Assembly (NCBI GenBank): GCA_965237525.1
Contig: CBDEFO010000007.1
Location: forward strand, 384,001 to 448,000
Reading direction: 5' to 3'
Source of the DNA: Candidatus Latescibacterota bacterium
Lineage (GTDB): Bacteria; Latescibacterota; CBDEFO01
Length of the DNA: 64,000 nucleotides
Shown here: in pieces, positions 1,000-31,016 of the stretch
How positions within the stretch are numbered: the first letter of the stretch is position 1
How the letters are laid out: each line of letters starts with the position of its first letter
The notes under the pieces: generated by a model
Database searches by the model: none
Seen by the model: only the letters and a program-made list of their open reading frames with translations
Told to the model about the DNA's origin: nothing
Position numbers and translations under genes: made by a program

Positions 1000-2375
1000 T
1001 CAAACAGTAGCATATCGTATCGTTTTGCTATGGGATAAGCAAAATAGTCTCATCAGAGTTCTCGTCAGCAAGGAATAGGAGCTGTTTGAAGAACAGGATG
1101 CACTCTCTTCGACAGATAGAGCACATGCAGATGCTTTCCCCCTTCTTATGAAGGACACAAGCCTCTTGAGATTCTGTACCGTTGCAACAAGATTTAACTG
1201 TTCATTCAGTGAGGCTAGTCCTCTGTAACGGGCTCGTCCCATACCGTGCTGTTGCTTGGCTTCAGCAAAGATATGTTCACTGCGTTTACGGAGTCTCTGG
1301 GAGAGTTTGTAGTCAGCTGTTAATGAGATAGACCGTGCATGATTTCTGGCTTTCGCCTCTCGCACTTTTCTATCCCATTCGGTCTGAATATGTGCGAAAT
1401 TTGTCTTCTTTTTTCCAAGTAGGAATGGGATCAATCTCTTCACCTGATCGCAGAGGAATGTGGGGTATGATCCCCCGGTCACATACATCGGCGATAAAAT
1501 TACCTGAACCGTAACCTTTATCGGCAGCAAGTGTCCGAACGTCTTCGGGAATGGTGTACGTCTCAAGGTCATCAACCATCTTAAGGGCACTTTCGGACTC
1601 TGCTGTCCCTGTCGCCTGTGTGCCCTGTGTCTCAAGGATTACTCTGCTTTTTGTGTCCCCGATAGATTCAATCGGGGATCAGATCACGGCCCATAAACGA
1701 GAGAAAAGCCCCTTTGCCCTTTGATTTCCTGTACAAGCGGGCGTCGGGGTCTGTAATCGAACGATGTGTTTGGTTCGTCCACTTTTCACCATGAAAGTCT
1801 TTATCCTGAGGATGCACAGACCTACCCTTTGTCTTATCACCTTCAAAACCAATTCCCTTGAGGTAGTCATCAAGAGAAACAGGAGGTTCTATCGGCTCAA
1901 TACTCTTCACTGAAGCATCAGCTTGTATCTGAGTGCCATCAACACTAAGGTGTTTACCGCTCACAAGACCGACATCTATGCAGCACTGGACTACCTGATA
2001 CATTATCCGTTCAAACAACCCACTCGATGCCCACTTGTGATTGCGAAGCTTGTTGATCGTGCTTCTATCCGGAACCGCATCCTCAAATGTCTGATGACAA
2101 AACAACCGATATGCCGCATGCATCCCCACTTCCTGACAGAGCCGATTCTCACTCAAATTATACAGATAGCCAATAAGGATAATTCGAACAACCAATTCAG
2201 GATCAATGCCAGGTGTGCCATTGTCAGGGCAATAACAATCTGATACAACGCCTAGTACAAATGAAAAATCAACTGCCTCATCAATCTGACGGAGGATATG
2301 ATCCTCGGGAACTAAATCCTCCATCTGAAAATAGTGAACAATCGGATTTGTCTGTTCCTTCTTTTGTGGGGTCAT
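1000..2375 (-). pseudogene. IS1182-family transposase pseudogene
   Basis: Split across ORFs 1668-2375, 1370-1579 and 1000-1410. Motifs LVPEDHILRQID, VDGTQIQADAS, ADKGY, RKRSEHIFAEAK. Confidence 0.9.
1658..1676. repeat. 19-bp hairpin element (cccgatagattcaatcggg)
   Basis: Absent from the homologous position in IS copies 2 and 3, where the site reads gtgtc^gatcag. Confidence 0.95.
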
Positions 2376-2485
2376 TCTTTCCTACATGTATAATATTATC
2401 AATAACATAATATAATACATTGGACCTGCTTTATCAATGCTTTTTTTATACTATTTTCTGAATCTAAGGGTTTTCACAAGGCTTC

Positions 2486-2724
2486 TAAGAGATGCAGGTA
2501 TTCGACGGATTCGGTTTCACGATCTGTGTCACACTTACGCCAGCTTGTTGATCGCCCATGGGGAAAGTCCCAAGTATATCCAGAATCAGCTTGGACACGC
2601 GTCCATCACAACGACACTGGATCGGTATGGTCATCTGATGCCGGAGGTTCATCGGGAGGCAGCAAAGCGACTGGACGACCAGTTGTTTGGCGGGTTTAGG
2701 AGATTTACAGTAGAAAAACAGTAG
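2486..2724 (+). pseudogene. Tyrosine recombinase/integrase C-terminal fragment truncated by the IS
   Basis: RFHDLCHTYASLLI...YIQNQLGHASITTTLDRYGHL (HxxR box degenerate, LGH and catalytic Tyr present). Confidence 0.85.
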
Positions 2725-2773
2725 AAAAAACGCAACGGGCTTCGACAGAGTTTTCGTAGCCCGTTGCGTTTTT
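2725..2773. terminator. Bidirectional intrinsic terminator
   Basis: aaaaaacgcaacgggc-loop-gcccgttgcgttttt between convergent genes. Confidence 0.75.
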
Positions 2774-2860
2774 ATGTCGTATTCAGAAGGACGCGAACCA
2801 TGAGCTTATTGATCAGTTGTCAAGTAATTTTTTTCCACTGTTCCCCCCGTCGCTTTCTAC

Positions 2861-3955
2861 TTATTTCACCATTCCTCTGGCCTTGACCTTCCAGGCTAAT
2901 TCGACTTTATCGTTTCTTATTCCGACTATTTCGTCCCACAGGTTGGATACTACACAGGCGTGTACGGGGATTATCTCCAATCTGTCACCGATCTTTATAT
3001 CTTTGGAAGGCTTGTCCAACCTCAGGATTCCGTGTTCTTCGTTCGACCAATCGTAGATGACTCCGTCTATTCCCTTGATTATTCCCAGTCCCTTTGCAAA
3101 GGGATGCGTGTCGCTTGTGAAGGTTTTATTTCCTCCATCTATGACGGCTCTGTCTCGTGCAGGTCTGCTGACTACTGTGGATATGACACTAAGGGCACAT
3201 CTTTCCTGGTCTACTACGTTCAACCCTACGGCTGATGCGTCGTAATAGACGTAGTTTCCGGGTCTTTCTTCAGTGACTCCTTTGATCTTGCAGGTCTCTG
3301 CCGAGGTGGGCGTGGCACCCATGCTGATTTCTTCGATGTTGAAGCCGTCACCCCGCAGTAGATCAGCGTTTGCTACCATTTCTTCGGCAGATTCTGTGCC
3401 TATCTTTATTCCCTGTTTTCTGTCATCGGTAGTATGTACATGCCCTGCGTGAGAGTATATCCCTATGATATTGATGCCGTTGAGCTTGGATACGTCTCTT
3501 GCAAACTGCAAAGTCGGCTCTCCCGGTAGAACCCCTGTGCGCTTAAAGCCTGTGTCTACCTCTATCAGTACGTCTACGGAAAGCCCTCTTGATTTTAGGT
3601 AATCTGACATCATCGAGGCGGCTTCCAGATCCTCTACGGAGGTTCTTATTTTGCATCTTCCCATTAGGGCTTCTAATCGCCGCATCTTACGTTCACCTAT
3701 AAGGGGATAGGCGACAAATATGTCTTCTATTCCCTCACAGCACATAATCTCCGCTTCGCCGAGTTTGGCGACTGTGATGCCTACAGCTCCTGCTCCTATC
3801 TGCATTCGGGCGATCTCCGGTATCTTATGGCTCTTGATGTGGGGACGGAGTTTGACCCCATAGCTCTGGACTGCATCCTGCATTTCGCAAATATTTCTGG
3901 AGAGTTTGTCCAGATCTACAACAGCTACGGGAGTTTCGAGTTGATCTTTGTGCAT
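2861..3955 (-). CDS. PLP-dependent fold-type III enzyme (D-threonine aldolase / D-serine dehydratase DSD1 family)
   Basis: TP..VVDLD, LRPHIKSHK, EVDTGFKRTGV, GATPT, RPGNY, EEHG, IIPVHAC. Confidence 0.9.
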   Translation of the reverse strand: MHKDQLETPVAVVDLDKLSRNICEMQDAVQSYGVKLRPHIKSHKIPEIARMQIGAGAVGITVAKLGEAEIMCCEGIEDIFVAYPLIGERKMRRLEALMGRCKIRTSVEDLEAASMMSDYLKSRGLSVDVLIEVDTGFKRTGVLPGEPTLQFARDVSKLNGINIIGIYSHAGHVHTTDDRKQGIKIGTESAEEMVANADLLRGDGFNIEEISMGATPTSAETCKIKGVTEERPGNYVYYDASAVGLNVVDQERCALSVISTVVSRPARDRAVIDGGNKTFTSDTHPFAKGLGIIKGIDGVIYDWSNEEHGILRLDKPSKDIKIGDRLEIIPVHACVVSNLWDEIVGIRNDKVELAWKVKARGMVK

Positions 3956-4143
3956 GTCCTACGCTCCTGTGGATAACTATTATGGGCTTGACTTGTGGAT
4001 TTGTCGGCCTTATATTTCTTGGGTTGGCAATGGAATAAGATAAGCATTTGTCTTTCAAATATCCAGTTAAATTTGTGCATTTTGCACCGAACATAGTCAA
4101 AATATGCAGACAGCCAACAGTATACAGGGATGGGAGGCGGTGC

Positions 4144-4169
4144 CCTGTCTACTGACCACTGTCTACTGA
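4144..4169. repeat. Short heptamer-type tandem repeat (cagtaga-like on minus strand)
   Basis: ctgtctactgaccactgtctactg; related cagtag/gtagacag units flank the hairpin loci near 8880, 22970 and 26945. Confidence 0.45.
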
Positions 4170-4185
4170 AATGTGAGGAGGGACA

Positions 4186-4704
4186 GTGGAAATACTTAAA
4201 ATTTTTTATTCCTTCGCCAAGGTCGGGATCTTTGGATATGGCGGAGGACCTTCGATGTTACCTCTGATCCAGGAGGAGGTTGTGGATGTGAACAGGTGGA
4301 TGACCGTCGAGGAGTTTACAGACGCTCTTGCTATGGGAAATTCGCTTCCGGGACCGATAGCTACCAAGATGGCTGCCTATGTGGGATTTAAGATCTCTGG
4401 CATCCTGGGGGCTATATCGGGGATAATAGGCGTAATATTCCCTTCGGCCGTGGCTATGTTGGTTCTGGCCACAATATTTTTTGAGATAAAGGATTCTCCC
4501 AAGACCAAGTCGGTCCTCGAGGCGGTAAGGCCGGTGATCGTGGCGCTTATGTTTATGATAGTTTACGAGATATTCCCCAAGTCTGTGATTTCGTGGCACA
4601 CGGCAGCAATAGCTCTTGCTGCATTTGTGTTAGTGGTCTTTTTTAACGTTCACCCTGCGCTGACAATTTTAGGGGCGGCGATCATAGGTTTCATATTCTA
4701 CTAA
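4186..4704 (+). CDS. Short-chain chromate transporter (ChrA family)
   Basis: GYGGGPSMLPLI...SLPGPIA motifs; hydrophobic. Confidence 0.9.
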   Translation: MEILKIFYSFAKVGIFGYGGGPSMLPLIQEEVVDVNRWMTVEEFTDALAMGNSLPGPIATKMAAYVGFKISGILGAISGIIGVIFPSAVAMLVLATIFFEIKDSPKTKSVLEAVRPVIVALMFMIVYEIFPKSVISWHTAAIALAAFVLVVFFNVHPALTILGAAIIGFIFY

Positions 4705-4723
4705 TCGATCAAAAAAGGGAGAG

Positions 4724-5420: not shown

Positions 5421-5427
5421 AGAGGAT

Positions 5428-6777: not shown

Positions 6778-6786
6778 GAGCATAAT

Positions 6787-8830: not shown

Positions 8831-8882
8831 CCTTTCCCTTCCTTTTTTCTGACAGGGCTGAGAGGAGTCGCCCTGTCTATCC

Positions 8883-8901
8883 CCTGATTAAGTCTATCGG
8901 G
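8883..8901. repeat. 19-bp hairpin element (variant)
   Basis: cctgattaagtctatcggg; reverse complement cccgatagacttaatcagg. Confidence 0.8.
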
Positions 8902-8919
8902 AGCTACTGCTTACTTGTT

Positions 8920-13904: not shown

Positions 13905-14078
13905 AGGCAATCTATGTGAGATTGCTTCCCCCCGATAGATTCAATCGGGGGTTGCTCGCAATGACACTGGGATTTGGTCGTCATGACATTGCTTGGCTTC
14001 GTCCTTTGGTCATTGCTAGGGGCAAGGCCCCGAGTTCCGATCCCCAATTGATGCTGTTGGGGATTCAATCGGGGACTC
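13905..14078. repeat. Cluster of palindromic repeats: gagattgcttc...ctcgcaatgac element with a 19-bp hairpin at 13931-13949, plus nested hairpins at 14036-14073
   Basis: Direct reading of the sequence. Confidence 0.75.
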
Positions 14079-14288: not shown

Positions 14289-16189
14289 TCAGTCTCCTTT
14301 GCTCTGGGCTGCGGAGTAGGACCTGTAAGCGATCAGCCCTTCTATAACGAGCCATATGGCTAAGGCTAATATTACTGATCCTAAGGCAGTTGGAATCCAC
14401 TGTTCAGCTCTGCCTGTCTTGATTATGTTCAGGGCCATCGCATATACTGTCACGATCAGCATAAAGACCATTGGCAGGACAGTGGAAAGTTGGGGTTTCC
14501 TGGATTTGAAAAGATAGACGCTTACCGTAAGGAGACCTAAGCCCGCAAGTAGCTGATTCGTTGTCCCAAAGAGCAGTAGAAGCACTATCCCCGCAGGCTG
14601 CCAGACGGTCTGTCCTGCTGCGCTTACCGTCGGAATCTTTAAAAGGCCGAAGAAACCTATGACTATGACGGCCAGAAAAGTGGCCACGTAGCGATTAGTT
14701 ATCGGGGCTATTTTCACGCTTTCGCCTATGGATTCGATATTGTAGCGCAAAAGACGAGTCGCAGAATCTAATGTTGTCATCGCAAATGCGACTACCATCA
14801 CCGAGATAAAGACGCCGGCAACTTCAACGCTTACACCGAGTTGTGAGACAAAGACCGCCGCGCCCTCGATGAAGGCATTGAGCTTCACTCCGATGCCTCC
14901 CTCGTTTATTGCCTTCCATGTTCCGTAGACATCCGTGAAGAGCTTGCCTCGTGCGCTGAATGTCGCTGCACATGCCATGATGACCAGAGTCGCCAGAAGT
15001 CCCTCAGCCAGCATAGCTCCGTAGCTGACAGCACGGGCGTCTCTTTCGTTCTGGAGCTGGCGGGCTGTTGTGCCCGATGCGACCAGGTTGTGGAACCCGG
15101 AGATGGCTCCGCAGGCCACTGTGATGAAGAGGAAGGGGAACCATGGCACAGCGGATTCATCAGAGGCTGCGTTGGGATTTATGGCGGGAGCCTCGATCTG
15201 TGGATTCATGATTACCAGACCCACGATAACTGCCGCCATGCCTAAATAGAGCTTATAGGAATTGAGGTAATCCCGCGGCTGAAGGAGCAGCCAGACGGGC
15301 AAAACTGAGGCCACAAAGGCGTAGGCCCAGAAGAACTACTATCCAGAAGGTGCGGGTGTCGGCAGCAGCGGCGTTCACGTCGACTGCAAAGGAGTCCTGT
15401 CCCTTCTGCTTGAAGTAGGCTGCAGCCTGACCCGGAAGGTTGGCGTTTCCCACTCCCATCTTGGCCGCTTTTAGTTTTGTATCTGCCAATTCGCCCGATG
15501 CAACAGCGGCATCCAGAGCGGTTCTAGCCTCAGGCTCCAGAAACCACTTATAGACAGGGATGGGATTATATACGCCGACGCCGATGAAGATGAACATAAG
15601 GGCCAAGCCCACTAGGGTCGCCGGTCCCCAAGCTGGTACGGTATTTATAGACCGCAGTGCCTATAAGAGAAGCGATAATCATCAACGAAAAGACGGGGAT
15701 AATGGCTTCAGGGTGGAGAAACGTGAATATGACAGCGATTACGAAGACAAAGAGTCCCATTGCCAAGGTGAGCAAAAAGAAGATGATCCATAAGAATAGC
15801 ATGCGGGCTCTTTCGCCTATTATCTCCCGTGTCAGATCGCCTATGGATCTGCCCTGGTGTCTGAGGGAGATGGCTAAAGCAGCAAAGTCGTGCACACCTC
15901 CCAGAAAGATAGTGCCCAAGACCACCCACAAAAGGGCCGGCAACCATCCCCAATAGACGGCCACTGCAGGACCGATGATTGGGCCAAGTCCGGCGATGGA
16001 TGCAAAGTGGTGACCGAAGAGGACGACGCGCTTTGTAGGGACGAAGTCCACTCCGTCGTTCAGTTCATTTGCGGGGGTCTTATCGCTGTCACCCAGGCCT
16101 AATATCTTGTCCCGTAGAAATGTCCCGTAGAATCTATAGGCCAACAGAAAAGCGCCTATAGATAGTACAACCGCAAATAAGGAGTTCAT
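14289..16189 (-). pseudogene. cstA: Carbon starvation protein A (peptide/pyruvate transporter), two frameshifts (about 15630 and 15325)
   Basis: DGVDFVPT..VLFGHHFASIAGLGPIIGP, SVLPVWLLLQPRDY, ACGAISGFH, TTLDSATRL across three frames; frameshifts may be sequencing errors. Confidence 0.85.
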
Positions 16190-16844: not shown

Positions 16845-17387
16845 TTACTCGCTGTAGCGCCATTCGGTGTCGCTTACTCCCGCTCTTTTGTTGGCTAATC
16901 TAGATAGGACGAATAGTAGATCAGAGAGCCTGTTGAGGTAAATTATTGTATTTGCGTCCACATCCTCGTCTTTGGATAGGGCTACGGCTCTCCTTTCGGC
17001 TCTGCGGCATATCCCTCTGGAAATATGCAGAAACGCCGCGGCAGATGATCCGCCGGGAAGGATAAAGTTACTCAAAGGATCGAGCTCTCCTTCGCACTTA
17101 TCTATGATATTCTCTATCTGGTTTACTCTTTGGGAGGAAATTGATGGCGCCTTTTCCTTCGAGACAGCCGATGCTAATTGAGCGCCCAGGATATGGAGGT
17201 CATTCTGAATCCCTTCCAAAATGGGGTCTATCTCCTTATCTTGGTTGAACGACCTTACTACGCCTAGAGACGAATTAAGTTCATCCACAGTTCCGTAAGC
17301 CTCGACTCTGAGCGAACTTTTTAAGATTCTTCCGCCTCGAAGCAGGCCTGTGTATCCGTCATCCCCCGATTTAGTGTATATTTTCAT
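16845..17387 (-). CDS. ATP:cob(I)alamin adenosyltransferase, PduO type
   Basis: MKIYTKSGDDG, AYGTVDELNS, FILPGG, CRRAER, YLNRLSD. Confidence 0.95.
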   Translation of the reverse strand: MKIYTKSGDDGYTGLLRGGRILKSSLRVEAYGTVDELNSSLGVVRSFNQDKEIDPILEGIQNDLHILGAQLASAVSKEKAPSISSQRVNQIENIIDKCEGELDPLSNFILPGGSSAAAFLHISRGICRRAERRAVALSKDEDVDANTIIYLNRLSDLLFVLSRLANKRAGVSDTEWRYSE

Positions 17388-17482
17388 AATGTGCGATCTG
17401 TTTGCAGATAACAAGTCGACAGATCGAGTATTTCAGGATTTAAGACAGTAGATGATCCGAAGAATGACTTCTCAAAACTGTC

Positions 17483-17501
17483 CCCAATAGAATCAATTGG
17501 G
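17483..17501. repeat. 19-bp hairpin element (A-T stem variant)
   Basis: cccaatagaatcaattggg in ctgtc^gatcaa. Confidence 0.9.
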
Positions 17502-17655
17502 GATCAACATCCCATCTATATCATCGGGATGCCACCAAGGGATACCTTTCTTCCACTTTTTCTGTGCATCAAAAAGCTGGGACGGACAGACTTCACATAG
17601 AATGGGAACTACTTCTGGAAAGGTGTTCTCACAAGTATCAGCACTAACACCAGTC

Positions 17656-17674
17656 CCCGATAGGTTCAATCGGG
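17656..17674. repeat. 19-bp hairpin element
   Basis: cccgataggttcaatcggg in cagtc^ggctc. Confidence 0.9.
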
Positions 17675-17799
17675 GGCTCCTGCCACCGAAAGAGAGACAT
17701 TATGGCGCAAATAGATTAATGACAGCAACAGCTCCTGATATGGCGCACGCCGTCGCTTGCGTCCTCCACCTGTGGCACGTTTGCGATTAGGTTGCAACG

Positions 17800-17975
17800 C
17801 AAAAGACTGTGGCAAAGCAAAAGACTGCTAACGACGTTCCACTAACACAGGCAACACTGATGCCAAAAGCTCAGATAAAGCCTCGAAACCTTATCAAGGT
17901 TAGGAAGATTTATCAGGGTAAGTTCCTTACGTAAGCTATTAAAAAAGACGAACCGATTACCTTCTGGAACATTTC
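17800..17975 (+). pseudogene. Possible SAF-domain remnant (NeuB-type C-terminus)
   Basis: GKFLT*AIKKDEPITFWNI resembles the end of the SAF domain; heavily decayed. Confidence 0.3.
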
Positions 17976-18047
17976 AACAAAAGATTCTACGCAAGAAACT
18001 TGCCAAAGTCCAGTATTATTTCTTGGACTTTCTAATGAGGCCTACTT

Positions 18048-20526: not shown

Positions 20527-20651
20527 GAGGAGCAAGAAGACGGATATATTGGTCGGAGGGTTCGTGATCGTAGCTATCGGCCTTTTGGTCTTTACGATAG
20601 TGCTCAAACAGGGGTTGACATTAGGGCATTATCCGCTCTTTGTGGAGTTTA

Positions 20652-22172
20652 GAAGCCTTGTGAAAAACCCTTAGATTCAGAAAGTAGTATAGAACAAGCA
20701 TTGATAAAGCAGCTCCGATGTATTATATTATGTTATTGATAATATTATACATGGAGGAAACAATGACCCCACAAGAGCAGGAACAGACAAATCCGATGTT
20801 TCACTATTTTCAGATGGAGGATTTAGTTCCCGAGGATCATATCCTTCGTCAGATTGATGAGGCAGTTGATTTTTCATTTGTACGAGACGTTGTATCAGAT
20901 TGTTATTGCCCTGACAATGGCAGACCCGGTATTGATCCTGAATTAGTTGTTCGAATGATCCTTATTGGCTATCTGTATAATTTGAGTGAGAATCGGCTCT
21001 GTCAGGAAGTGGGGATGCATGCGGCATATCGGTTGTTTTGTCATCAGACATTTGAGGATGCGGTTCCGGATAGGAGCACGATCAACAAGCTTCGCAATCA
21101 CAAGTGGGCATCCAGTGGGTTGTTTGAACGGATAATGCGTCAGGTAGTCCAGTGTTGCATAGATGTCGGTCTTGTGAGCGGTAAACACCTTAGTGTCGAC
21201 GGCACTCAGATACAAGCTGATGCTTCAGTGAAAAGTATTGAGCCGATAGAACCCCCTTTTTCTCTTGATGATTATCTCAAGGGAATCGGTTTTGAAGGTG
21301 ATAAGACAAAGGGTAGGTCCGGGCATCCTCAGGATAAAGACTTTCATGGTGAAAAGTGGACGAACCAAACACACCGTTCGACTACAGACCCCGACGCGCG
21401 CTTATACAGCAAATCGAAGGGCAAAGGGGCTTTTCTCTCGTTTATGGGCCATGATCTGATCGACACAAAAAGCAGAGTAATCCTTGAGACTCAGGGCACG
21501 CAGGCGACAGGGACAGCAGAGCCCGAAAGTGCCCTTAAGATGGTAGATGACCTTGAAACATACACCATGCCCAAAGACATTCAGACACTTAGTGCCGATA
21601 CCGGTTACGGTTCTGGTAATTTTATCGCTGATGTACTTGACCGGGGAATCATACCCCATATTCCTCTGCGAGCCGATGAGAGGATTGAACCGATTCCTAC
21701 ATGGAAAAACAAGACAAATTCAGCACATATTCAGGCCGAACGGGATAGAAAAGTGCGAGAGGCGAAAGCCAGAAATCATGCACGGTCTATCTCATTAACA
21801 GCTGACTACAAACTCTCCCGGAGACTCCGTAAACGCAGTGAACATATCTTTGCTGAAGCCAGGCAACAATACGGTATGGGACGAGCCCGTTACAGAGGAC
21901 CAGCCTCACTGAATGAACAGTTGAATCTTGTTGCAACAGTACAGAATCTCAAGAGGCTTGTATCTTTCATAAGAAGGGGGAAAGCGTCTATGTGTGCCCT
22001 GTCTGTCAAAGACAGTGCATCCTGTTCTTCAAACAGCTCCTGTTCCTTGCTGACCAGAACTCTGATAAGACTATTTTGCTTATTCCACAGCAAAACGATA
22101 CGATATGCTACTCTTTGACCCATAATCGGCGCTTCAGACGCTGCCTGGGACATAACTATTTCACAAGGCTTT
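20652..22172 (+). mobile_element. IS1182-family-like insertion sequence, copy 2 (1521 bp)
   Basis: Inverted repeats aagccttgtgaaa/tttcacaaggctt; TA duplicated within a TTAA target. Confidence 0.92.
20763..22118 (+). CDS. IS1182-family DDE transposase (intact)
   Basis: GRPGIDP, VPDRST, VDGTQIQADAS, STTDPDARL, ADTGY, RSEHIFAE; RBS ggagg. Confidence 0.9.
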   Translation: MTPQEQEQTNPMFHYFQMEDLVPEDHILRQIDEAVDFSFVRDVVSDCYCPDNGRPGIDPELVVRMILIGYLYNLSENRLCQEVGMHAAYRLFCHQTFEDAVPDRSTINKLRNHKWASSGLFERIMRQVVQCCIDVGLVSGKHLSVDGTQIQADASVKSIEPIEPPFSLDDYLKGIGFEGDKTKGRSGHPQDKDFHGEKWTNQTHRSTTDPDARLYSKSKGKGAFLSFMGHDLIDTKSRVILETQGTQATGTAEPESALKMVDDLETYTMPKDIQTLSADTGYGSGNFIADVLDRGIIPHIPLRADERIEPIPTWKNKTNSAHIQAERDRKVREAKARNHARSISLTADYKLSRRLRKRSEHIFAEARQQYGMGRARYRGPASLNEQLNLVATVQNLKRLVSFIRRGKASMCALSVKDSASCSSNSSCSLLTRTLIRLFCLFHSKTIRYATL

Positions 22173-22976
22173 TAAGTCGATAGGAAATATAGGAGTGGGC
22201 GCGAAGGTGAAGTTGAGAGGCTTTGAGGTGGGAAAGGTCAAGCAAGTTGAGTTTTATCCTGAACCGCAAAAAGAGGGTGTCTTTTTTGTGGTAGAGTTGG
22301 CTATCAAGAACGAATATCCTGTTATTGAGGGAACAGTGGGAGAGGTTAAGGGAGGGGGGATTGTGGGCGATAGTTTTATAAATTTAGACGTTTCGAGTCA
22401 GGGGCACCTGCCGTTTAAGGCCGGTGCTACTGTGAAGGGTAAGGAAGCTCTAGATACCGGGACACTTATGGCCAAGGCAGTCACTATGCTGGAGAGGATG
22501 ACTGAAATGTCAGAGAGGATAAGGGACGCAGAAATTGGGGGTAGATTCAAGAAGTTTGTGGAGGTAGTTCACAAGATTTCAACAGATGTGGAGGGTTTGA
22601 GCAAGGACGCCCAGTCTATGCTCACAAGGAGCGAGTCCCTAATTGCGACCGTGGAGCCGGGCCTTAAGAAGTCTATAGATAAGTTGAATGAAGACCTGGA
22701 TTACTCGAAGGAGACGTTGACGAGTCTGAACGAAATATTAGGTGACAACAGTGAGAACATAAAGGATGCGCTGGAGGCTCTCCAGAGGAGTTTGAATCAG
22801 ATGGAGAAGTTGATGTCCAATCTGGACAATCTAACTGTAGAAAATAGAGCGCAAATAGATTCGACGCTCAAAAACATGGAGGATATTTCGGCGTCTTTCA
22901 AGGATGTGGCGAGGCATCCGTGGAAGATCATATTCGGGGGTGTGAAGGGAGGACAAGGGGACAGTCGTCAGTAGCT

Positions 22977-23014
22977 CCCGATTGAACCCCCAATTGAATC
23001 TATTGGGGGGCGGG
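22977..23014. repeat. Nested pair of 19-bp hairpin elements
   Basis: cccgattgaacc[cccaattgaatctattggg]gggcggg. Confidence 0.85.
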
Positions 23015-23077
23015 GGTAGACAGGCAAAGGCAGTAGGGGAGAACCTGTGTGTTTGCCCAGATGAAAGGAGACAAACG

Positions 23078-23815
23078 TTGTTCAAATCCAGAGTTCCGGT
23101 CTTTGATGGAAATGTGGCTTTGGGGAGGAGGCACGATGCGAGGGTGAGCGTGGACACCCCGGAGGGTCTTCTGATGGTTATGGAAAGACTTGGAATAGAT
23201 AAGGCATTAGTTTACAATCCCTATGGGGTTACATACGATAGCGTTAAGGGGAATAGAGAGATTCTGAAAACCGTTGAGGGGTTTTCAGAGCTTGTGCCTC
23301 AGTTTGTAGCCAATTTCCCAGCTGAGTCATTTGAGGATTTTAAGGAAGGTGTTAAGGATAAAGGGATAAAGAGTCTGAGGGCATACCCAAAGACACACAC
23401 GTATCCATTCGTGTCGTGGATGGTGGGGGATTGGATGGAGTGGATAGAGGATGAGGGGATAGCCTTATGGCTCCCAATTGATGAGGTGGACATCAAGGAC
23501 CTCTATGAGATGGCAAGGGCGCATCCGGCGATAAACATAGTGCTGGTGGGGGTGCATTACACCCACCAAATTGTGATTTTTGGAATGATGGAGCACTTAC
23601 CGAATCTCTACGTGGAACTTTCACGGTATTACGTTATGGAACCTGTCGAAAGATTTGTGAGCAGATTCGGTTCCCAAAGGTTGATATTCGGCTCGGGCTC
23701 CCCTGACATGGACGGAGGGGCGTATCTTTATTATCTGAACAACTGCGGGCTATCTGACAACGTTTTGAGGGCTATCTGCCGGGATAATCTGGAGGTTCTT
23801 CTAAATGGCGATTGA
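23078..23815 (+). CDS. Amidohydrolase_2 family protein with degenerate metal site
   Basis: FDGNV in place of DxHxH; LIFGSGSP in place of FGSDxP; TTG start after aaggag. Confidence 0.75.
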   Translation: MFKSRVPVFDGNVALGRRHDARVSVDTPEGLLMVMERLGIDKALVYNPYGVTYDSVKGNREILKTVEGFSELVPQFVANFPAESFEDFKEGVKDKGIKSLRAYPKTHTYPFVSWMVGDWMEWIEDEGIALWLPIDEVDIKDLYEMARAHPAINIVLVGVHYTHQIVIFGMMEHLPNLYVELSRYYVMEPVERFVSRFGSQRLIFGSGSPDMDGGAYLYYLNNCGLSDNVLRAICRDNLEVLLNGD

Positions 23816-24563
23816 CGGAGCTAAGGTCATAGATTTTCACTGTCACATAGGCACCTGGCAGCGCTTGTGTATGTACGACGATCTGGAGGATATGATAAGG
23901 GTTATGGATTCTGCCGGGGTAGATATGGCGTGTCTCTTTAACAACTTCCGGGGGAATGCTAGTTTCGGGAACGATGAAGTAGCCAAAGCTGTGGAGCGCT
24001 ATCCGGACAGGTTCATAGGGTTTGCTTTCGTGACTCCGCACTACCCTGAGGAGGTGGAAAACGAGCTACTTAGGGTGATCGATAGACTCAAAATGAGGGC
24101 GATAAAGATATATCCTCCGTATTTTGGGAGGTCTGTGGAGGATCCCGCATGGGAAGGGATATTCAAGTTTGCAAATGAAAGGGGTTTAACGATTATATCG
24201 CACACAGATGTTACTGGCGGTCCCAGTAATCCGTCTTTCTTCGTGCCGTTAGCCCAGAAATATAAGAATGTAAAGTGGGTGTTGGGACATGCGGGCGTGA
24301 CTCCCCCAGGGAGAATTGAGGCCATAGAGGCGGCGAGAAAGTGTTCAAATATCTATCTTGAGATATGTTCGTCTTACAGCACTTTCGGGTCTGTGGAATT
24401 CCTCGTAAACGGAGCGGGGGAGGATAGAGTGTTGTTTGGGTCTGACATGCCTCTTATGGATCCGAGGATACATTTAGGGAGGGTTATGACCGCTGATATA
24501 TCTGAGAAGTCAAGACACAAGGTGTTAGGAGAGAATTCCTTAAGGCTTCTAGGTCTTAGCTGA
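23805..24563 (+). CDS. Amidohydrolase_2 family protein, copy 1
   Basis: IDFHCH, IKIYP, LGHAG, VLFGSDMP. Confidence 0.9.
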   Translation: MAIDGAKVIDFHCHIGTWQRLCMYDDLEDMIRVMDSAGVDMACLFNNFRGNASFGNDEVAKAVERYPDRFIGFAFVTPHYPEEVENELLRVIDRLKMRAIKIYPPYFGRSVEDPAWEGIFKFANERGLTIISHTDVTGGPSNPSFFVPLAQKYKNVKWVLGHAGVTPPGRIEAIEAARKCSNIYLEICSSYSTFGSVEFLVNGAGEDRVLFGSDMPLMDPRIHLGRVMTADISEKSRHKVLGENSLRLLGLS

Positions 24564-24834
24564 GGATCTATTACAAATGCAAATAAAGTTTCTCCACACT
24601 TTGTGATTTTTGGAATGATGGAGCACTTACCGAATCTCTACGTGGAGCTTTCACGGTATTACGTTATGGAACCTGTCGAAAGATTTGTGAGCAGTTTCGG
24701 TTCCCAAAGGTTAATATTCGGGTCGGGCTTCCCTGAGATGGATGGAGGGGCGTATCTTTATTATCTGAACAACTGCGGGCTATCTGATAACGTTTTGAGG
24801 GCTATCTGCCGGGATAATCTGGAGGTTCTTCTAA

Positions 24835-25593
24835 ATGGCGATTGATGGAGCTAAGGTCGTAGATTTTCACTGTCACATAGGCACCTGCCAGCGCTTGCGT
24901 ATGTACGACGATCTGGAGGATTTGATAAGGGTTATGGATTCTGCCGGGGTAGATATGGCCTGTCTCTTTAACATCCACCGGGGGAATGCTAGCTTCGGCA
25001 ACGATGAAGTAGCCAAAGCTGTGGAGCGCTATCCGGACAGGTTCATAGGGTTTGCTTTCGTGACTCCGCACTACCCTGAGGAGGTGGAAAACGAGCTACT
25101 TAGGGTGATCGATAGACTCAAAATGAGGGCGATAAAGATATATCCTCCGTATTTTGGGAGGTCTGTGGAGGATCCCGCATGGGAAGGGATATTCAAGTTT
25201 GCAAATGAAAGGGGTTTAACGATTATATCGCACACAGATGTTACTGGCGGTCCCAGTAATCCGTCTTTCTTCGTGCCGTTAGCCCAGAAATATAAGAATG
25301 TAAAGTGGGTGTTGGGACATGCGGGCGTGACTCCCCCAGGGAGAATTGAGGCCATAGAGGCGGCGAGAAAGTGTTCAAATATCTATCTTGAGATATGTTC
25401 GTCTTACAGCACTTTCGGGTCTGTGGAATTCCTCGTAAACGGAGCGGGGGAGGATAGAGTGTTGTTTGGGTCTGACATGCCTCTTATGGATCCGAGGATA
25501 CATTTAGGGAGGGTTATGACCGCTGATATATCTGAGGAGGCAAGACACAAGGTTTTGGGAGAAAATGCCTTAAGGCTTCTGGATCTTGGCTGA
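24835..25593 (+). CDS. Amidohydrolase_2 family protein, copy 2
   Basis: Near-identical to 23805-24563. Confidence 0.9.
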   Translation: MAIDGAKVVDFHCHIGTCQRLRMYDDLEDLIRVMDSAGVDMACLFNIHRGNASFGNDEVAKAVERYPDRFIGFAFVTPHYPEEVENELLRVIDRLKMRAIKIYPPYFGRSVEDPAWEGIFKFANERGLTIISHTDVTGGPSNPSFFVPLAQKYKNVKWVLGHAGVTPPGRIEAIEAARKCSNIYLEICSSYSTFGSVEFLVNGAGEDRVLFGSDMPLMDPRIHLGRVMTADISEEARHKVLGENALRLLDLG

Positions 25594-25606
25594 GGATCTA
25601 TTACAA

Positions 25607-26965
25607 ATGCAAATAAAATTTCTCCACACTGCCGATATTCACATCGGCGTAGAAAATCACGGGCTGATAGATCCTTCTACGGGTCTCCATACCAGGACGC
25701 AGGACTTTGAAAAGTGCTTGGATTTTGTGTATGAGAAGGGCATGGAGGAGGAGATCGATCTGGTGGCCTTTTCGGGAGACGCTTATAAGAACTGCCATCC
25801 CAGTCCGACTCATCAAAGGATCTTTGCTTCGTTTGTTAAGAAGTTCAGCGGTGCGGGCGTTCCTTTTGTGATGGTCGTGGGGAATCATGATATTCCTGGA
25901 GCCTTTGGGAGGGCGACTTCTATTGATATTTTTGGGACTTTGGGGATTTCAAAGGTGTCTGTGGCGACCAGTCCAAGGATCTTTAATATCGAGACAAAGT
26001 CCGGGCCTATTCAGGTCGCGTGTCTGCCTTGGCCCACTCAGAGCCGTCTTATGACAAAGGACGAATATAGTGGGCTGTCTTCTTTTGAGATTACCAGGGA
26101 GATTGAGAGCATATGCGCGGACATTGTTGAGAAATTTGCTGATGAATTGGACAAGCGAATTCCATCTGTGCTCCTAGCTCACGTGACTGCGGCTGACGCG
26201 GAATATTCGAAATCTGAAAGGACTGCGGTGATAGGAAGAGATCCTACGCTCTTGACAAGTGTTCTGACAAATAGTCAGTTCGATTACGTGGCTTTGGGGC
26301 ACATACACAAATTCCAGGATTTGAATCCAAGGGGAAGGCCCCACGTTGTGTATCCGGGGAGCGTCGAGCGCGTGGACTTCGGCGAGGAGAAGGAGGAAAA
26401 GGGATTCTGTCTGGTGACTATAAAAGATAAGAGCCAAAGGCCTGGCGTCAGAACTAAATCGGAGGATGAGAATCTTTCTCTTTTTTCGGCGGTTTCCCGT
26501 GAGAAGAAAGATAACGGACCTTTGGAAAGGGAGGTGAGATATGAGTTTATAGAGACTCCCGCAAGACCCTTTGTGACCATCATATCTGATGTGAAAAAGG
26601 GGGAAGACCCGACTCAGGTTATCTTAAGAGAGATAAAAAAGCACGACCTTAAGGATGCTGTTGTGAGGGTTCTTTACACTGTGTACGAGGACGTCATAGG
26701 TTCTGTGGATTATAGGGCGATAGATAAGGCTTTAAGGGACACTGGCGCTTTCTACGTTGCAGGGATCATTCCGAAAGTTGACATCCCTGAGAGGATCAGG
26801 AGGTCTGAGGTGTCCGAGGAGTTAGGCGTCCAGGAAGCTCTGGATAAGTACATTGACAACACTCCTGAGTTTGAACCTTTTCGTAAGGAATTAAAAAAGT
26901 ACGCCGCCCAGTTAGAGGCTGAGCTTGAAAGACAGGGTGAAAATGTAGACAGCAGCTCCCGATAG
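25607..26965 (+). CDS. sbcD: Exonuclease SbcCD subunit D
   Basis: HTADIHIG, SGDAY, GNHD, ALGHIH, YPGS..RVDFGE; upstream of sbcC. Confidence 0.93.
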   Translation: MQIKFLHTADIHIGVENHGLIDPSTGLHTRTQDFEKCLDFVYEKGMEEEIDLVAFSGDAYKNCHPSPTHQRIFASFVKKFSGAGVPFVMVVGNHDIPGAFGRATSIDIFGTLGISKVSVATSPRIFNIETKSGPIQVACLPWPTQSRLMTKDEYSGLSSFEITREIESICADIVEKFADELDKRIPSVLLAHVTAADAEYSKSERTAVIGRDPTLLTSVLTNSQFDYVALGHIHKFQDLNPRGRPHVVYPGSVERVDFGEEKEEKGFCLVTIKDKSQRPGVRTKSEDENLSLFSAVSREKKDNGPLEREVRYEFIETPARPFVTIISDVKKGEDPTQVILREIKKHDLKDAVVRVLYTVYEDVIGSVDYRAIDKALRDTGAFYVAGIIPKVDIPERIRRSEVSEELGVQEALDKYIDNTPEFEPFRKELKKYAAQLEAELERQGENVDSSSR

Positions 26966-27002
26966 TCCCCGATAGGTTCACTCGGGGATAGGTTCAATCG
27001 GG
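26958..27002. repeat. Nested pair of 19-bp hairpin elements overlapping the sbcD stop
   Basis: cccgatagtc[cccgataggttcactcggg]gataggttcaatcggg. Confidence 0.85.
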
Positions 27003-27196
27003 GGTAGACAGGAGCACCTTCTCCCTCCGTATACTGCGTAGTGCAGGGGTTGGGTTACCCAGCCCTCGGGGCGACCACTTCGTGCTTGTTGCCTCCACTC
27101 TCCTGCAAGGCAGGAAGTGCGCTGACCCCTTCAAATGTGCTATTTTTTGCTTTGTTAATCTTACCGACTGCTACTCTAAAGGGATAGTATATCACC

Positions 27197-30100
27197 ATGA
27201 TTCCTGTTAAGTTGTCATTGAGAAATTTCCTGAGTTACGGGGAAGATGTGCGCCCTTTAGATTTTTCAGGGTTTCATGTTGCGTGCCTTTCTGGGGAGAA
27301 CGGTCACGGAAAGTCAGCGCTTTTAGATGCTATGACCTGGTCTCTCTGGGGCCAAGCCAGAAAATCCAGAAGTAGGGGCGCAAACGAAGGCTTATTGAAG
27401 ATCGGTGCGTCTGAGATGAGGGTGGAATTTGAGTTCGATCTTGAGGAGCAGAGATTCAGAGTGATAAGATCCTTCAGGAGGGGAAAAGGGAGCGGGCGTC
27501 CGAGTTTGGAGTTTCAGGTCTATGATAACGATAAGGGCAAATACAGGGTCCTTTCCGATGTGTCGTCCATGAGAAGGACACAGGAGGAGATAGATGATGC
27601 TCTAAAGATGGATTACGATACGTTCATAAACTCTGCGTTTATACTTCAAGGACGGGCTGATGAGTTTACGAGGAAGACCCCGACAGAGAGGAAACAGATT
27701 CTGGCAGACATTCTAGGTCTCTCCAAGTACGATCTTCTCTGGGAGCTGTCGAGGTCTCACTATAATAAGTTGGATAATGAGATAGAAGGTTATTGTAGGG
27801 AGTCTCAAAGGATCGATGAGGAGCTTTCGCACAAGGATCTTTATAAAGAACAAATTGACGGGCTGACAGTCAGACTGTCGGAGCTGTCCAGAGGTATTGA
27901 GTCTCTGGAGAAGGTGTTTTCAGAACTTCGGGAAAAAAAGGGGGATCTAGAAAGGAAGCGAGAACAGGTAGAGGATTTGGAATCTGAACTTGACAGAATC
28001 CAGGACGAGATTGATGACATAAAGGGACAGATAGATTCATCCAGCGATCAGATCAGTGAATATGAGAAGATAATATGCAAAGAAGATGAGATTAAGAGTG
28101 ATATCTCCACGTACAATAGATTGATGGATCAGGAAAGAGAGTTTACCCAAAGACTTGGTAGGCTGAGAGATCTGGAATCTCGGAAAGCGGATGTCGATAG
28201 GAAGGTCGAAGAGGCAAAACATGAGGTTGAAAAGTGCAGGAATCTGTGGGAGGAGAGGCTCGGTTCAGCGGAAAACGTTTTAGATGAGGCAAAGGAGATT
28301 TTGAAGAGGGAAAAGGAGATTGCGAATGGGTATAAAGAGTTGATGAAGTCCAGGCGAGAAAATGAGAAGATGGAGGGTCTGAGAAGGAGTCAAGATGAGC
28401 TGCTAAAGGCGGAGCTGGAGATTCAAAGGAAAATCGAGAAGCTTAAGTCCGGGCTCGAGGTGGAGCTCGGGACCTTAAGGAATCAGATTACGGAATTGGA
28501 TAGTAAAGCAGATGCCCAAGAGCATCTCAAAGGGAGGTTGGAAAAGATCAGGCAGGAATTGGAACGCTTAGAGGTTTTAGAAAGTGAAAGTGAGAATATA
28601 AGGGATAAGGGCAGCGAATTGAACGTCAAGATAGATGGAGACATAAAGGGGGTCCAGGATTTGGAGAAGGAGATAGCGGAGGAGAACGATAAACTGGATC
28701 TGATCAAGGAGAGCCAAGATAGTTCCTGTCCGCTGTGTGAAAGCCATATAGATGAGGAAAAAAGGGAGAATATCGTAAGGAAGATGGAGGAGAAGATTGA
28801 AAAGGTGAAGGCGGAGATTGCGGTCATACAGGGGGAGTTAGAGGAGGATGAGAAAGAAAGATCGGAACTTAGGAGAAAGTATAGGGAGGCAAAGGAGGTC
28901 TTAGAGTCTCTGCCTTCGATCAGAAGCGGAGCGGCTCAGGCTGAGGCTTTGTTCAACGAAGCAGTCGAGGCTGAGGGTAAGATAGCAGAGCTTAAAGAAG
29001 ATGAGGAAGCGGTGCGAAGGAGGCTGGATGAGAGGGATTTTGCCCCAGAGGAGAGGGAGGATCTGGAGAAGGTGAAAAGACAGATCGAGAAGTTAGGTTA
29101 CAATACCCAAAAGCACGAGGAGATCGGGGAGACTCTGCAAAAGTTGAAGGGTTATGAGGCAGAAAAGGCGCGTCTGGATTCGACTTTAGAACGATACAAC
29201 GCTGCAAAGGAGGCGATACCTGGGATAAAGGAGGAGATAAGGACTGCCAAGCTATATCTAGATGAAAAAAAGTACGCCGAAAAGGAGCAGAAGGAAGTTG
29301 AGAGGGTTTTGGACGAGATCCAAAAGGTCGAATACGACAAGCGTGAGCACGAAAAGATAAGACTAGAGTTGGATAGCCTAAGCCAGGCCCCCGTACAGGC
29401 TGAGAGGCTTAGGGATGCGCGGGATAAGATAGATGCGGTAAAAGAGGTACTGAAGATATTGGAGAAGAGATTTGAAGATAGGATGAAAAGACAGGATGAG
29501 ACCAAAGGGAATGTCAAAGGATTGAAAGTGGAGATAGCGGGTACAGTAGATGTGGAGCAGAAGATCTCAGGGATTGAAAAGACGCTTCGGGATTCCAGAG
29601 TAAATAGGGAGAAGCTCCTTGGAGAACAGGGCAGCGCTCAGGCGAGGTACGATAAGTGTCTTGAACTTGAGGAGGAGAAAAAGGAGGTTACTGAGTCTTT
29701 AAGGAAGGCACAAGAGGAGAGGGATATTTACGATAAGCTTAGAAGGGCCTTCGGAAAGGATGGGATTCAGGCTCTCATAATTGAGAACGCTATCCCTGAA
29801 ATTGAAGATGAGGCGAACGATATACTGTCAAGACTGACAGATAATAAGACGCATATCTCGATCGAGTCTCAAAGGGGTCTAAAATCAGGAGGATTAAGGG
29901 AGACATTGGATATCAAGATCAGCGATGAGCTGGGGGAAAGGGATTACGAGCTTTACAGCGGGGGAGAGGCGTTCAGGACAAACTTCGCGCTGAGGATAGC
30001 CCTGTCAAAACTTCTGGCCCGGAGGGCGGGAACAAAGCTACGGACTTTAGTGATAGATGAGGGTTTCGGGACGCAGGATTCGGAGGGATTAGGACATCTG

Positions 30101-30244
30101 GTTGGAGCCATAGATAAGATAAGTAAGGATTTCGACAAGATACTTGTGGTTACGCATTTAGAGGAGTTGAAACGGGCTTTTCCCGTCAGGATTGAAGTGA
30201 GAAAAAATGCTCGATCTGGATCGGAATTCGAGATCGTTACTTGA
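27197..30244 (+). CDS. sbcC: Exonuclease SbcCD subunit C (SMC/Rad50-like ATPase)
   Basis: Walker A GENGHGKS, coiled coils, CPLC zinc hook, YSGGE, IDEGFG. Confidence 0.95.
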   Translation: MIPVKLSLRNFLSYGEDVRPLDFSGFHVACLSGENGHGKSALLDAMTWSLWGQARKSRSRGANEGLLKIGASEMRVEFEFDLEEQRFRVIRSFRRGKGSGRPSLEFQVYDNDKGKYRVLSDVSSMRRTQEEIDDALKMDYDTFINSAFILQGRADEFTRKTPTERKQILADILGLSKYDLLWELSRSHYNKLDNEIEGYCRESQRIDEELSHKDLYKEQIDGLTVRLSELSRGIESLEKVFSELREKKGDLERKREQVEDLESELDRIQDEIDDIKGQIDSSSDQISEYEKIICKEDEIKSDISTYNRLMDQEREFTQRLGRLRDLESRKADVDRKVEEAKHEVEKCRNLWEERLGSAENVLDEAKEILKREKEIANGYKELMKSRRENEKMEGLRRSQDELLKAELEIQRKIEKLKSGLEVELGTLRNQITELDSKADAQEHLKGRLEKIRQELERLEVLESESENIRDKGSELNVKIDGDIKGVQDLEKEIAEENDKLDLIKESQDSSCPLCESHIDEEKRENIVRKMEEKIEKVKAEIAVIQGELEEDEKERSELRRKYREAKEVLESLPSIRSGAAQAEALFNEAVEAEGKIAELKEDEEAVRRRLDERDFAPEEREDLEKVKRQIEKLGYNTQKHEEIGETLQKLKGYEAEKARLDSTLERYNAAKEAIPGIKEEIRTAKLYLDEKKYAEKEQKEVERVLDEIQKVEYDKREHEKIRLELDSLSQAPVQAERLRDARDKIDAVKEVLKILEKRFEDRMKRQDETKGNVKGLKVEIAGTVDVEQKISGIEKTLRDSRVNREKLLGEQGSAQARYDKCLELEEEKKEVTESLRKAQEERDIYDKLRRAFGKDGIQALIIENAIPEIEDEANDILSRLTDNKTHISIESQRGLKSGGLRETLDIKISDELGERDYELYSGGEAFRTNFALRIALSKLLARRAGTKLRTLVIDEGFGTQDSEGLGHLVGAIDKISKDFDKILVVTHLEELKRAFPVRIEVRKNARSGSEFEIVT

Positions 30245-30246
30245 TG

Positions 30247-30284
30247 CCCAATCCCCGATAGACTTAATCGGGCATTCCATTGGG
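30247..30284. repeat. Nested pair of 19-bp hairpin elements
   Basis: cccaatc[cccgatagacttaatcggg]cattccattggg. Confidence 0.8.
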
Positions 30285-30308
30285 GGGAAGCAAGGAGGAA
30301 AAGCGATC

Positions 30309-31016
30309 ATGGCTGCTCTTTCAAGATGGATGATTCTGGTGCATCTTGTTTGTCTGGCAGTCTCTTGCTATGCACAGGATGAGCGGCACGGCCGCTTTGT
30401 CGGGGAGGATGGCAACAAGTCCCCGATTGAATCTATCGGGGATCATATGAAAAGGGACGCCGGGATGGTACAGATCGAGAATTTCAAGATAGACAGGTAC
30501 GAGTATCCGAATATCGTGGGGGAATATCCGCTTTATAATGTGAGTTGGTACGAAGCTCAGGCTAAGTGTAAATCTAAAGGGAAACGCCTATGTTCTGAAG
30601 CAGAATGGGAAAGAGCTTGCACCGGGATGAATAATCACGTGTATCCTTATGGGAACAGTTTCGATGAAGACAAGTGCAATACGCCCCATCAAGTGGATGG
30701 AAACTGGGGACGCGACAGGGGTATTGCAAAGATAGGAAAGTGGAAAGAATGTGTCAGCGACTATGGTGTCTATGATATGAGCGGGAATGTGTGGGAGTGG
30801 GTCGATGGGGTCTACTCTTCAAGGGAGGGATGGCGTGTGGTCAAGGGGGGATCGTGGTTTCAAAACGTGAACTTCGCGACGTGTTCTGCCAGATACGGAA
30901 GATATCTGACTCCAGATTACAGGCTGGATCTGATAGGCTTTAGATGTTGTCAGTCCCCGATTGAACCTATCGGGGATCAGTCTGTAGCGGTAGAAACAGA
31001 TGGGGACCAGAATTAA
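30309..31016 (+). CDS. Secreted FGE-sulfatase (SUMF1/EgtB/PvdO family) domain protein carrying two 19-bp hairpin insertions
   Basis: Signal peptide; IDRYEYP, KRLCSEAEWERAC, YDMSGNVWEW, GGSW, GFRCC; insertions at 30422-30440 and 30956-30974. Confidence 0.85.
   Translation: MAALSRWMILVHLVCLAVSCYAQDERHGRFVGEDGNKSPIESIGDHMKRDAGMVQIENFKIDRYEYPNIVGEYPLYNVSWYEAQAKCKSKGKRLCSEAEWERACTGMNNHVYPYGNSFDEDKCNTPHQVDGNWGRDRGIAKIGKWKECVSDYGVYDMSGNVWEWVDGVYSSREGWRVVKGGSWFQNVNFATCSARYGRYLTPDYRLDLIGFRCCQSPIEPIGDQSVAVETDGDQN

Follow-up and report, generated by a model that had tools for sequence, protein, structure and literature searches.

Background

The small dispersed repeats (SDRs) of cyanobacteria are hairpin-shaped and insert into tandem repeats. 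In the relevant parts of PMC4390886 and PMC2884548, which cite Elhai et al. 2008 (Genome Res 18:1484), SDRs are gene-less, dispersed and possibly mobile sequences of approximately 20 nt, and for SDR5 of Nostocaceae a precise insertion between bases 3 and 4 of HIP1 is described. Repetitive extragenic palindromic (REP) sequences with a GTAG foot and the REPINs are short palindromes as well, which occur in hundreds of copies, are non-autonomous and for which a single-stranded DNA (ssDNA) route has been proposed (sections of PMC3116915 and PMC8266576); in the former, single REPs count as remnants that no longer move. The spread of REP- and SDR-like repeats of 20-30 nt is a long-standing question, and CGTC-tagged REPs seem to have no transposase dedicated to them, as stated in parts of Di Nocera et al. 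2013 (PMC3733652). Ssn proteins are small GIY-YIG nucleases whose cuts in ssDNA lie a few bases upstream of NTS/SRM hairpin repeats (Chenal et al. 2025, PMC11893778). According to the sections of that paper on cleavage, SsnA cleaves ssDNA only, beside such hairpins, and requires the foot of the repeat; these sections report no joining of DNA by SsnA and describe no mobility of SRM cores. The present analysis concerns a window of 64,000 nucleotides (the whole stretch analysed; positions 384,001 to 448,000 of contig CBDEFO010000007.1 of Candidatus Latescibacterota bacterium, assembly GCA_965237525.1) and a short hairpin dispersed in it, which an original prediction made from the letters of the window had regarded as a very small mobile element. 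The element, a small palindromic repeat, is real and mobile; its junction rule is unusual, and its link to Ssn repeats can be tested. As a gene-less mobile element, which it likely is, it would be among the smallest known. The literature search, to which the supplements of PMC11893778 and PMC3733652 (whose repeat variants could include a footed relative) did not belong, yielded no description of the 23-nt element.

Like the SDRs, the element is approximately 20 nt long, gene-less, dispersed and without an assigned enzyme; it is likewise a hairpin with compensatory changes and has filled and empty alleles. In contrast to SDR5, it has no fixed site (diverse 4-mers are used and 2 to 5 nt are replaced), shows a weak symmetric target preference, nests in itself and is identical in distant lineages. 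As to behaviour, the element resembles the SDRs, which the original prediction named as the closest precedent; in sequence, for which SDRs were compared by description only, the Ssn-type CGTC/NTS repeats are nearest. From GTAG REPs and REPINs the element differs in that it has no GTAG foot, moves as a single hairpin and not as an inverted doublet (single units differ between orthologs), and appears not to be tied to the RAYT of the source genome, which has a REP family of its own. Most likely, the element is SDR/REP-like in its behaviour.

The repeat unit and its abundance

The source genome (4.58 Mb in 8 contigs, 96.6% complete) contains 341 exact matches to CCCRAT-N7-ATYGGG, compared to 1.9 expected from the half-sites and none in one simulation of the genome by a fifth-order Markov model. 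The enrichment that the prediction implied was thus found genome-wide. The matches show a spike at a loop length of seven, whereas all other lengths from 0 to 20 gave at most 42 each. Within two mismatches of the commonest unit form, 505 near copies were counted. Because some copies ride on larger repeats (present in 37, 10 and 9 copies), sites with the same context were merged into 430 distinct sites. In the window, eight exact matches (1658, 13931, 17483, 17656, 22989, 30254, 30422 and 30956) were detected, compared to 0.03 expected from 100 shuffles, together with three units with one mismatch (8883, 14043 and 26968), and all 11 predicted loci are therefore real.

While the predicted 7-nt loop proved correct, the predicted size (19 bp with a 6-bp stem) did not: the unit comprises 23 nt with an 8-bp stem, and 19 nt is its usual net gain. 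Positions -1/+1 are C and G, and positions -2/+2 pair at 334 of the 430 sites (194 expected; T-A at 186, C-G at 145), so that the unit ends are TC..GA or CC..GG. The outer bases -2/+2 are often unlike those of the empty allele. A clean 19-nt insertion at YC^GR was also considered and dropped, as the orthologs show that the outer two bases arrive with the unit. At stem pair 4/16, 30 of the 430 sites have A-T and 5 have T-A; one-sided A.C or G.T combinations occur at 21. These compensatory switches indicate that variant copies likely act as donors and that stem pairing is likely required. Many loop and stem variants recur.

The 430 sites lie in unique DNA (166), in units of their own kind (142), in GTCATTGCGAG-type repeats (68), in TAGACAG heptamers (42) and in GTAG REPs (12); at 39 of them, one frame is open for 80 codons on both sides. 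Fifteen pairs of neighbouring units are closer than 70 nt, and five same-strand head-to-tail pairs are exactly 27 nt apart.

Some copies belong to larger elements. A MITE-like repeat (miniature inverted-repeat transposable element) of approximately 240 bp with AACCCGAATAATTCA-type ends (C2:17900-18130 of the source genome and 36 similar sites) holds an SRM-like doublet; its 37 copies carry a unit at one site and nine of them a second unit, and these units are therefore passengers. An IS3-like insertion sequence (IS) in ten copies (C1:85236 and nine similar sites) bears a unit in the transposase region, inherited from one insertion. A sibling family, CCCCG-N7-CGGGG, occupies 29 sites in similar contexts (e.g. 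C3:85040, C6:2553 and C8:1722779); its inner sequence is ATTAAAT at 17 of the 29 sites and ACTGGAT or ACTTGAT at some others.

Filled and empty sites

The most direct evidence of mobility comes from an IS1182/IS5-like element of the window. Its copy at 943..2489 (minus strand; DUF772 and DDE domains by Pfam, extent by BLAST) contains a unit at 1656..1678 (plus strand; TC-core-GA, core 1658-1676) which frameshifts the transposase gene, breaking it into open reading frames (ORFs) 1668-2375 and 1000-1635. Compared to other copies of the IS, the gain is exactly 19 nt. When folded, the unit forms a stem of 8 bp and a loop of 7 nt (-7.5 kcal/mol, z -3.2). Two intact copies, at 20649..22175 (plus strand) and 37407..38936 (minus strand), have the empty site and served as control alleles; the intact copy scored 263.6 bits with NF033551 (cut-off 270) and 152.3 bits with NF033581 (cut-off 140). 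The source genome harbours at least 135 near-full copies of this IS, approximately 4% of its sequence, by an IS inventory that is incomplete. Among the 135 copies longer than 1.2 kb, 134 hold the exact empty site and one holds the unit.

A relative of the same genus (96% identical; 2.8 of 4.5 Mb compared) revealed many further pairs. For 587 sites of the source genome (up to three mismatches), 264 ortholog calls were made, with 39 ambiguous or unanchored cases and 103 sites shared at equal length; for 312 sites of the relative, there were 232 calls, with 22 set aside and 100 shared. Both directions pooled, 74 orthologs show no trace of the unit; a few of them belong to duplicated segments or to one MITE present in several copies. 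Independent of the ortholog calls, an indel census was performed on a 2.08-Mb alignment of the two genomes (4.2% mismatch). Its 1,933 events include 26 length differences of 19 nt, 41 of 20 nt and 16 of 27 nt, of which 22, 32 and 13, respectively, are explained by the unit, as opposed to none of the five of 23 nt.

Contigs from separately assembled public runs were also inspected. Run X1, possibly from the source sample itself, covers 25507-31500 of the window with 0 differences, and run X2 covers 17280-18035 and 25524-31500; run X9 and the runs with a low share were excluded from the evidence. The unit at 30422 is filled in X4 and empty in X6, which stem from the same sample. The polymorphism anticipated by the original prediction thus exists among IS copies, among orthologs and between runs. 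An adapter artefact, about which the prediction had cautioned, and an assembly artefact were rejected since contigs of separate runs span units, filled and empty contigs exist and the second genome carries 267 copies. The unit is almost certainly mobile. At the polymorphic sites, gain is favoured over loss on account of the IS case and of the unrelated bases at empty sites.

Two further observations concern the two genomes. At C3:425573, the loop orientation is opposite in the two genomes at the same site, which suggests an inversion between the arms or a replacement. Indels of 28 nt at three sites concern the same segment (starting TATCCGTTGATCCC), presumably one tandem unit of some multicopy element.

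Junctions and target sites

The 74 net gains fall into two main classes, +18 to +21 (34) and +26 to +28 (15), and a gain of +23 did not occur. In the first class, the unit replaces 2-5, mostly 4, target bases, which need not match the unit ends; replaced 4-mers include ACAG, CTAC, TCTA, GCTA and ACGC. In the second class, the four extra bases are either a 4-nt duplication or a CAGG/CAAG tail. The predicted mobility is supported, with the amendment that the unit replaces target bases instead of going in cleanly and has 23 nt, or 27 nt with the tail. Of 290 non-nested sites, 18 lie between direct repeats of 4 nt (mean of the shuffles 2.6, maximum 8). Unlike a DDE-dependent MITE, which shares terminal inverted repeats with an IS and has a constant target duplication, the element has a 4-nt duplication at few sites, and target bases are usually lost; this comparison is based on the duplications, without a systematic search for similarity to IS ends.

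Empty targets reveal a weak symmetric preference, with a pyrimidine as the first base outward and a purine as the third (29 of 38 each), a result from 19 events, three of which are copies of one MITE. Empty +19 sites have C at -1 in 11 of 14 and G at +1 in 8 of 14 cases, matching the unit ends. Junctions vary by 1-2 nt. A general targeting of hairpin loops was unsupported, as 19 of 50 empty sites lay in such loops compared to 16.5 (range 12-27) in shifted controls; at nested and SRM sites, however, one position is used repeatedly. In long ORFs, only polymorphic sites with multiples of three persist.

Relationship to Ssn-type repeats

The source genome contains a single SRM-ssn-SRM cassette, with its ssn-type gene at C4:479839-480159, and 184 GTCATTGCGAG repeats. 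The ssn-type assignment is based on protein size, the Pfam family PF01541 and the flanking repeats, not on a CDD model. A second ssn-type gene, 72.5% identical to that of the source genome, was detected in genome G075 at locus L385 (L numbers denote loci from other lineages and metagenomes). It has SRM repeats on both sides, and the core of the upstream repeat is 3 nt away from the main variant of the element and 1 nt from a variant of the source genome. Hence, a footed relative of the element does flank an ssn-type gene. At one metagenome locus (L336), the element core itself occurs with a full foot. The SRM subfamily is present in 7 of 12 element-positive but only 3 of 84 element-negative genomes of the class of G041, a count in which related genomes are not independent of each other. 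Forms of 27 nt that have an SRM-like core and a CAGG/CAAG tail but no foot were detected in this class and on a viral contig. In the source genome, the tail occurs at 13 of 32 sites with SRM-like variants compared to 20 of 398 others, an excess inflated by a cluster of paralogous sites.

From these sequence similarities it is quite probable that the element and the Ssn-type repeats share a common origin, and the descent probably ran from the SRM core to the element. Both have a CCCG..CGGG stem, and the cores differ by only 1-3 nt from the subfamily flanking the ssn-type gene. On the other hand, the element has neither the GTCAT foot nor the ATCC(A)G end, is 23 instead of approximately 28 nt long, does not lie beside an ssn gene and, instead of forming doublets, inserts into SRMs. 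Other hairpins of 19-23 nt with CCCCG..CGGGG ends and different loops were observed inside SRM repeats at L219:1430-1460 and at L379, upstream of a GIY-YIG gene; one of this set bears a CAAG tail.

Distribution in other genomes

Among 168 genomes of the phylum, searched with a looser pattern, only the source genome (310) and its relative (261) are rich in the element and all others have 0-4 copies, so the expansion is limited to one genus. Identical cores are nevertheless patchily present in distant lineages, namely in G041 to G044, labelled Deltaproteobacteria (21, 5, 6 and 3 copies), in G045, labelled Thermodesulfobacteriota (8 copies), in 12 of 96 genomes of the class of G041, in a genome of Anaerolineales (two copies) and in approximately 120 stretches of metagenomes. 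The GTDB-wide scan for the element covered 19 of 64 parts, and the element-positive genomes are partly kin. The metagenome stretches and the loci of G041 to G045 represent 73 distinct contexts with 36-68% GC, in which, apart from TPR proteins and from spurious ORFs that lie on a common repeat, no neighbour gene recurs. Searches of viral contigs and plasmids did not detect the exact element; footed and tailed relatives are present on viral contigs. On two GC-rich metagenome contigs, units lie upstream of an rpsB-like gene (L296:2502) and between nusG- and rplK-like genes (L298:294; gene names by inspection), positions where leader hairpins lie. Since the unit explains most 19-, 20- and 27-nt differences between the two close genomes, disrupts or lengthens genes and is found again in distant lineages, it is a real source of small-scale variation, which goes unrecorded in annotation.

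Candidate enzymes and alternative explanations

The element was predicted to be non-autonomous with no linked gene in the window, and this still applies. Genes for reverse transcriptases (RT), HUH/RAYT, IS110 and GIY-YIG proteins were searched for, and none was linked to the motif. The source genome has one ssn-type gene, one RAYT-like gene and one IS110, none of which was detected in the relative, and within the families searched there is no candidate enzyme common to both. Cas1 was not found in either genome, and four-helix-bundle genes are absent from the source genome. IS110 was set aside as it was present in one copy in the source genome and in none of four other genomes searched; a worn element approximately 170 nt upstream of this copy is taken as chance at the given unit density. 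A search for the IS91 Y2 enzyme in five genomes gave no signal, nor did its control. By inspection, the listed ORFs with units on both sides resemble ordinary metabolic and IS genes. As the RAYT-like gene of the source genome was missed by the Pfam scan and found by its motif, negatives for other families may also miss divergent members. Moreover, such cassettes differ between genomes only 4% apart, so a present-day absence is weak evidence either way.

As the best explanation, to which we assign a probability of about 45%, we propose an ssDNA hairpin that is moved in trans and for which an Ssn-type nuclease is the foremost candidate, and rank this ahead of an HUH enzyme, microhomology patching and reverse transcription. 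A gene-less 23-nt hairpin (8-bp stem, 7-nt loop), derived from the core of an Ssn-type (CGTC/NTS-like) repeat, would be copied from ordinary genomic copies. The unit would be released as a single strand by a hairpin-specific ssDNA enzyme that acts in trans, an Ssn-type GIY-YIG nuclease being the most plausible one, and host repair would join the released hairpin into a target, where it would take the place of approximately 4 bases or bring 4 extra. Speculatively, the ends of the folded hairpin may be apart by approximately 4-5 stacked bases and thus bridge a 4-nt gap (+19), while a hairpin with a 4-nt tail may join at a nick (+27). We regard the ssDNA hairpin intermediate as somewhat better than an even bet; Ssn as the moving enzyme is doubtful. 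Slightly more doubtful still is the far-reaching form of the proposal, namely that cores of Ssn-type repeats break free as 23- or 27-nt hairpin oligonucleotides, released by an Ssn-type nuclease or a relative and spliced in by a four-base swap or the tail. If true, this would be transposition without a transposase and a first mobility role for the Ssn family, and it could be a common engine for many tiny footless hairpin insertions in uncultured bacteria, spread between phyla by phages and cassettes. With many filled and empty pairs, candidate enzymes that can be named and a measurable junction rule (about -4 or +4, but never 0), the question of how such short repeats spread is testable in vitro.

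Several findings speak against this explanation. No enzyme is linked to the element. The ssn-type gene of the source genome was not found in the relative, which has unit copies of its own, and no element lies within 10 kb of that gene. The presence of small GIY-YIG genes does not go together with that of the element (5 of 12 positive genomes, or 7 with fragments, compared to about 30 of 84 negative ones), and no GIY-YIG motif was detected in 150 loci of other lineages (L205-L354). The unit has no foot as needed by SsnA, whose reported cut lies upstream of the motif and for which the sections of PMC11893778 concerned report no joining. The published SRM pattern (GTC foot, C after the palindrome) matched none of the 430 sites at one mismatch and four at two; as controls, both ssn flanks of the source genome and one flank at L385 match at one mismatch and the other at two, and all fail at zero. 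The descent could also have been reversed, with the unit replacing SRM cores. Part of the +18/+21/+27 gains is enriched by reading-frame selection, since 12 of 25 such events lie in long ORFs compared to 0 of 21 for +19/+20. Unit orientation is unbiased with respect to GC skew (199:189 and 115:97), where a lagging-strand ssDNA route might have left a bias. Finally, as the two genomes are 4% divergent and were compared without an outgroup, later mutations may account for some of the flank differences and losses for some of the empty sites.

An HUH tyrosine transposase of the RAYT or IS200/IS605 type, which would cut and rejoin strands and exchange the hairpin into targets as proposed for REPs, has the advantage that such enzymes both cleave and join ssDNA (part of PMC8266576), which a hydrolytic nuclease alone cannot do. 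The source genome has a RAYT-like gene (C8:1476118-1476645, 176 aa; NF047646 63.5 bits, cut-off 80) with GTAG-type REPs on both sides, one element lies in the downstream REP, and Y1 genes are present in G041, G043 and G045. However, no RAYT was found in the relative by Pfam family or protein query, a GTAG foot is present within 2 nt at only 30 and a GTAG-type REP at only 12 of the 430 sites, and the junctions, by inspection, do not lie at the C|T or C|A sites reported in that part of PMC8266576 and vary by 1-2 nt. This route is therefore unlikely. To a similar degree unlikely is that no dedicated enzyme exists and that a stable ssDNA hairpin is patched in at forks via microhomologies of 1-3 nt, in the manner of SPDIR (short-patch double illegitimate recombination), helped by gene conversion among repeats. 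Imprecise junctions with replaced target bases, the C at -1 and G at +1 of empty +19 sites, the location of 264 of the 430 sites in their own kind or in other repeats, and the absence of a common candidate enzyme would fit well. Yet SPDIR is described in one abstract as rare and of widely varying size, whereas here two tight size classes exist and +23 is absent; furthermore, the expansion in a single genus, the 166 sites in unique sequence and the missing replication-strand bias argue against patching.

An RT that copies the unit from an RNA template at staggered nicks, where a 4-nt offset either way would lead to a 4-nt loss or duplication, fits the data in one respect: -4 and +4 classes without a 0 class resemble the pattern of target-primed reverse transcription. 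An RNA route was reportedly once suggested for cyanobacterial SDRs. The relative has two RT matches. In the source genome, though 96.6% complete, PF00078 gave no match, and it matched in only 5 of 14 element-positive genomes; orientation relative to transcription is unbiased (129:119 and 45:43), the window contains no Rfam family, and the many recurring loop and stem variants argue against one master template. We consider reverse transcription the least probable of the four routes and very unlikely.

Repeat units and genes of the window

As predicted, the units of the window occur in both orientations, within an IS, within a gene, in intergenic DNA and within other repeats. The four loci listed with two units each are not tandem pairs, each being an intact unit nested in a split older unit. 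A worn unit with one mismatch at 8881..8903 (minus strand) lies in a TAGACAG-type heptamer context and is common to the relative, as is the CC..GG unit at 13929..13951 (plus strand) within a GTCATTGCGAG..GAAGCAATCTC (SRM-like) repeat at 13918-13965. The nested pair at 14036..14075, with its inner unit (14041-14063, minus strand) in a split outer unit, is absent from the relative, which is 45 nt shorter, and from a contig of run X4. Two units follow on the plus strand, one at 17481..17503 with a compensatory A-T stem pair, for which the relative has a variant, and one 173 nt downstream at 17654..17676 in the same orientation. The alignment to the relative is interrupted between them: approximately 160 bp (17505-17664) do not align, which may reflect recombination between the two flanking copies.

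At 22977..23015 (minus strand), the inner unit (22987-23009) replaces 4 nt of the outer one, and the relative has a single unit. The locus at 26958..27003 (plus strand; inner unit 26966-26988), with nested or partly duplicated units, is 10 nt shorter in the relative and in run X4. Three units lie in an ORF at 30207..31016 (plus strand), which encodes 269 aa with an FGE-sulfatase domain (PF03781): a nested pair at 30247..30284 (plus strand; inner unit 30252-30274) near its start, common to the relative; the unit at 30420..30442 (minus strand), with a net gain of 15 nt that keeps the frame, filled in X4 and empty in X6 as in the relative; and a unit near the 3' end at 30954..30976 (minus strand), which is read in frame and shared with the relative.

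Elsewhere in the window, the CstA gene (14289-16189) is split into two ORFs; since runs X2 and X4 differ there by single bases (14306, 15324 and 15626), the two breaks in question may be peculiar to the strain or result from errors of the assembly. At 23673 and 24703 and at 23805-25593, amidohydrolase paralogs lie in tandem and a segment upstream is duplicated. The region 51700-59419 contains four DUF4838 genes in tandem, which come after genes for BNR-repeat proteins and glycoside hydrolases.

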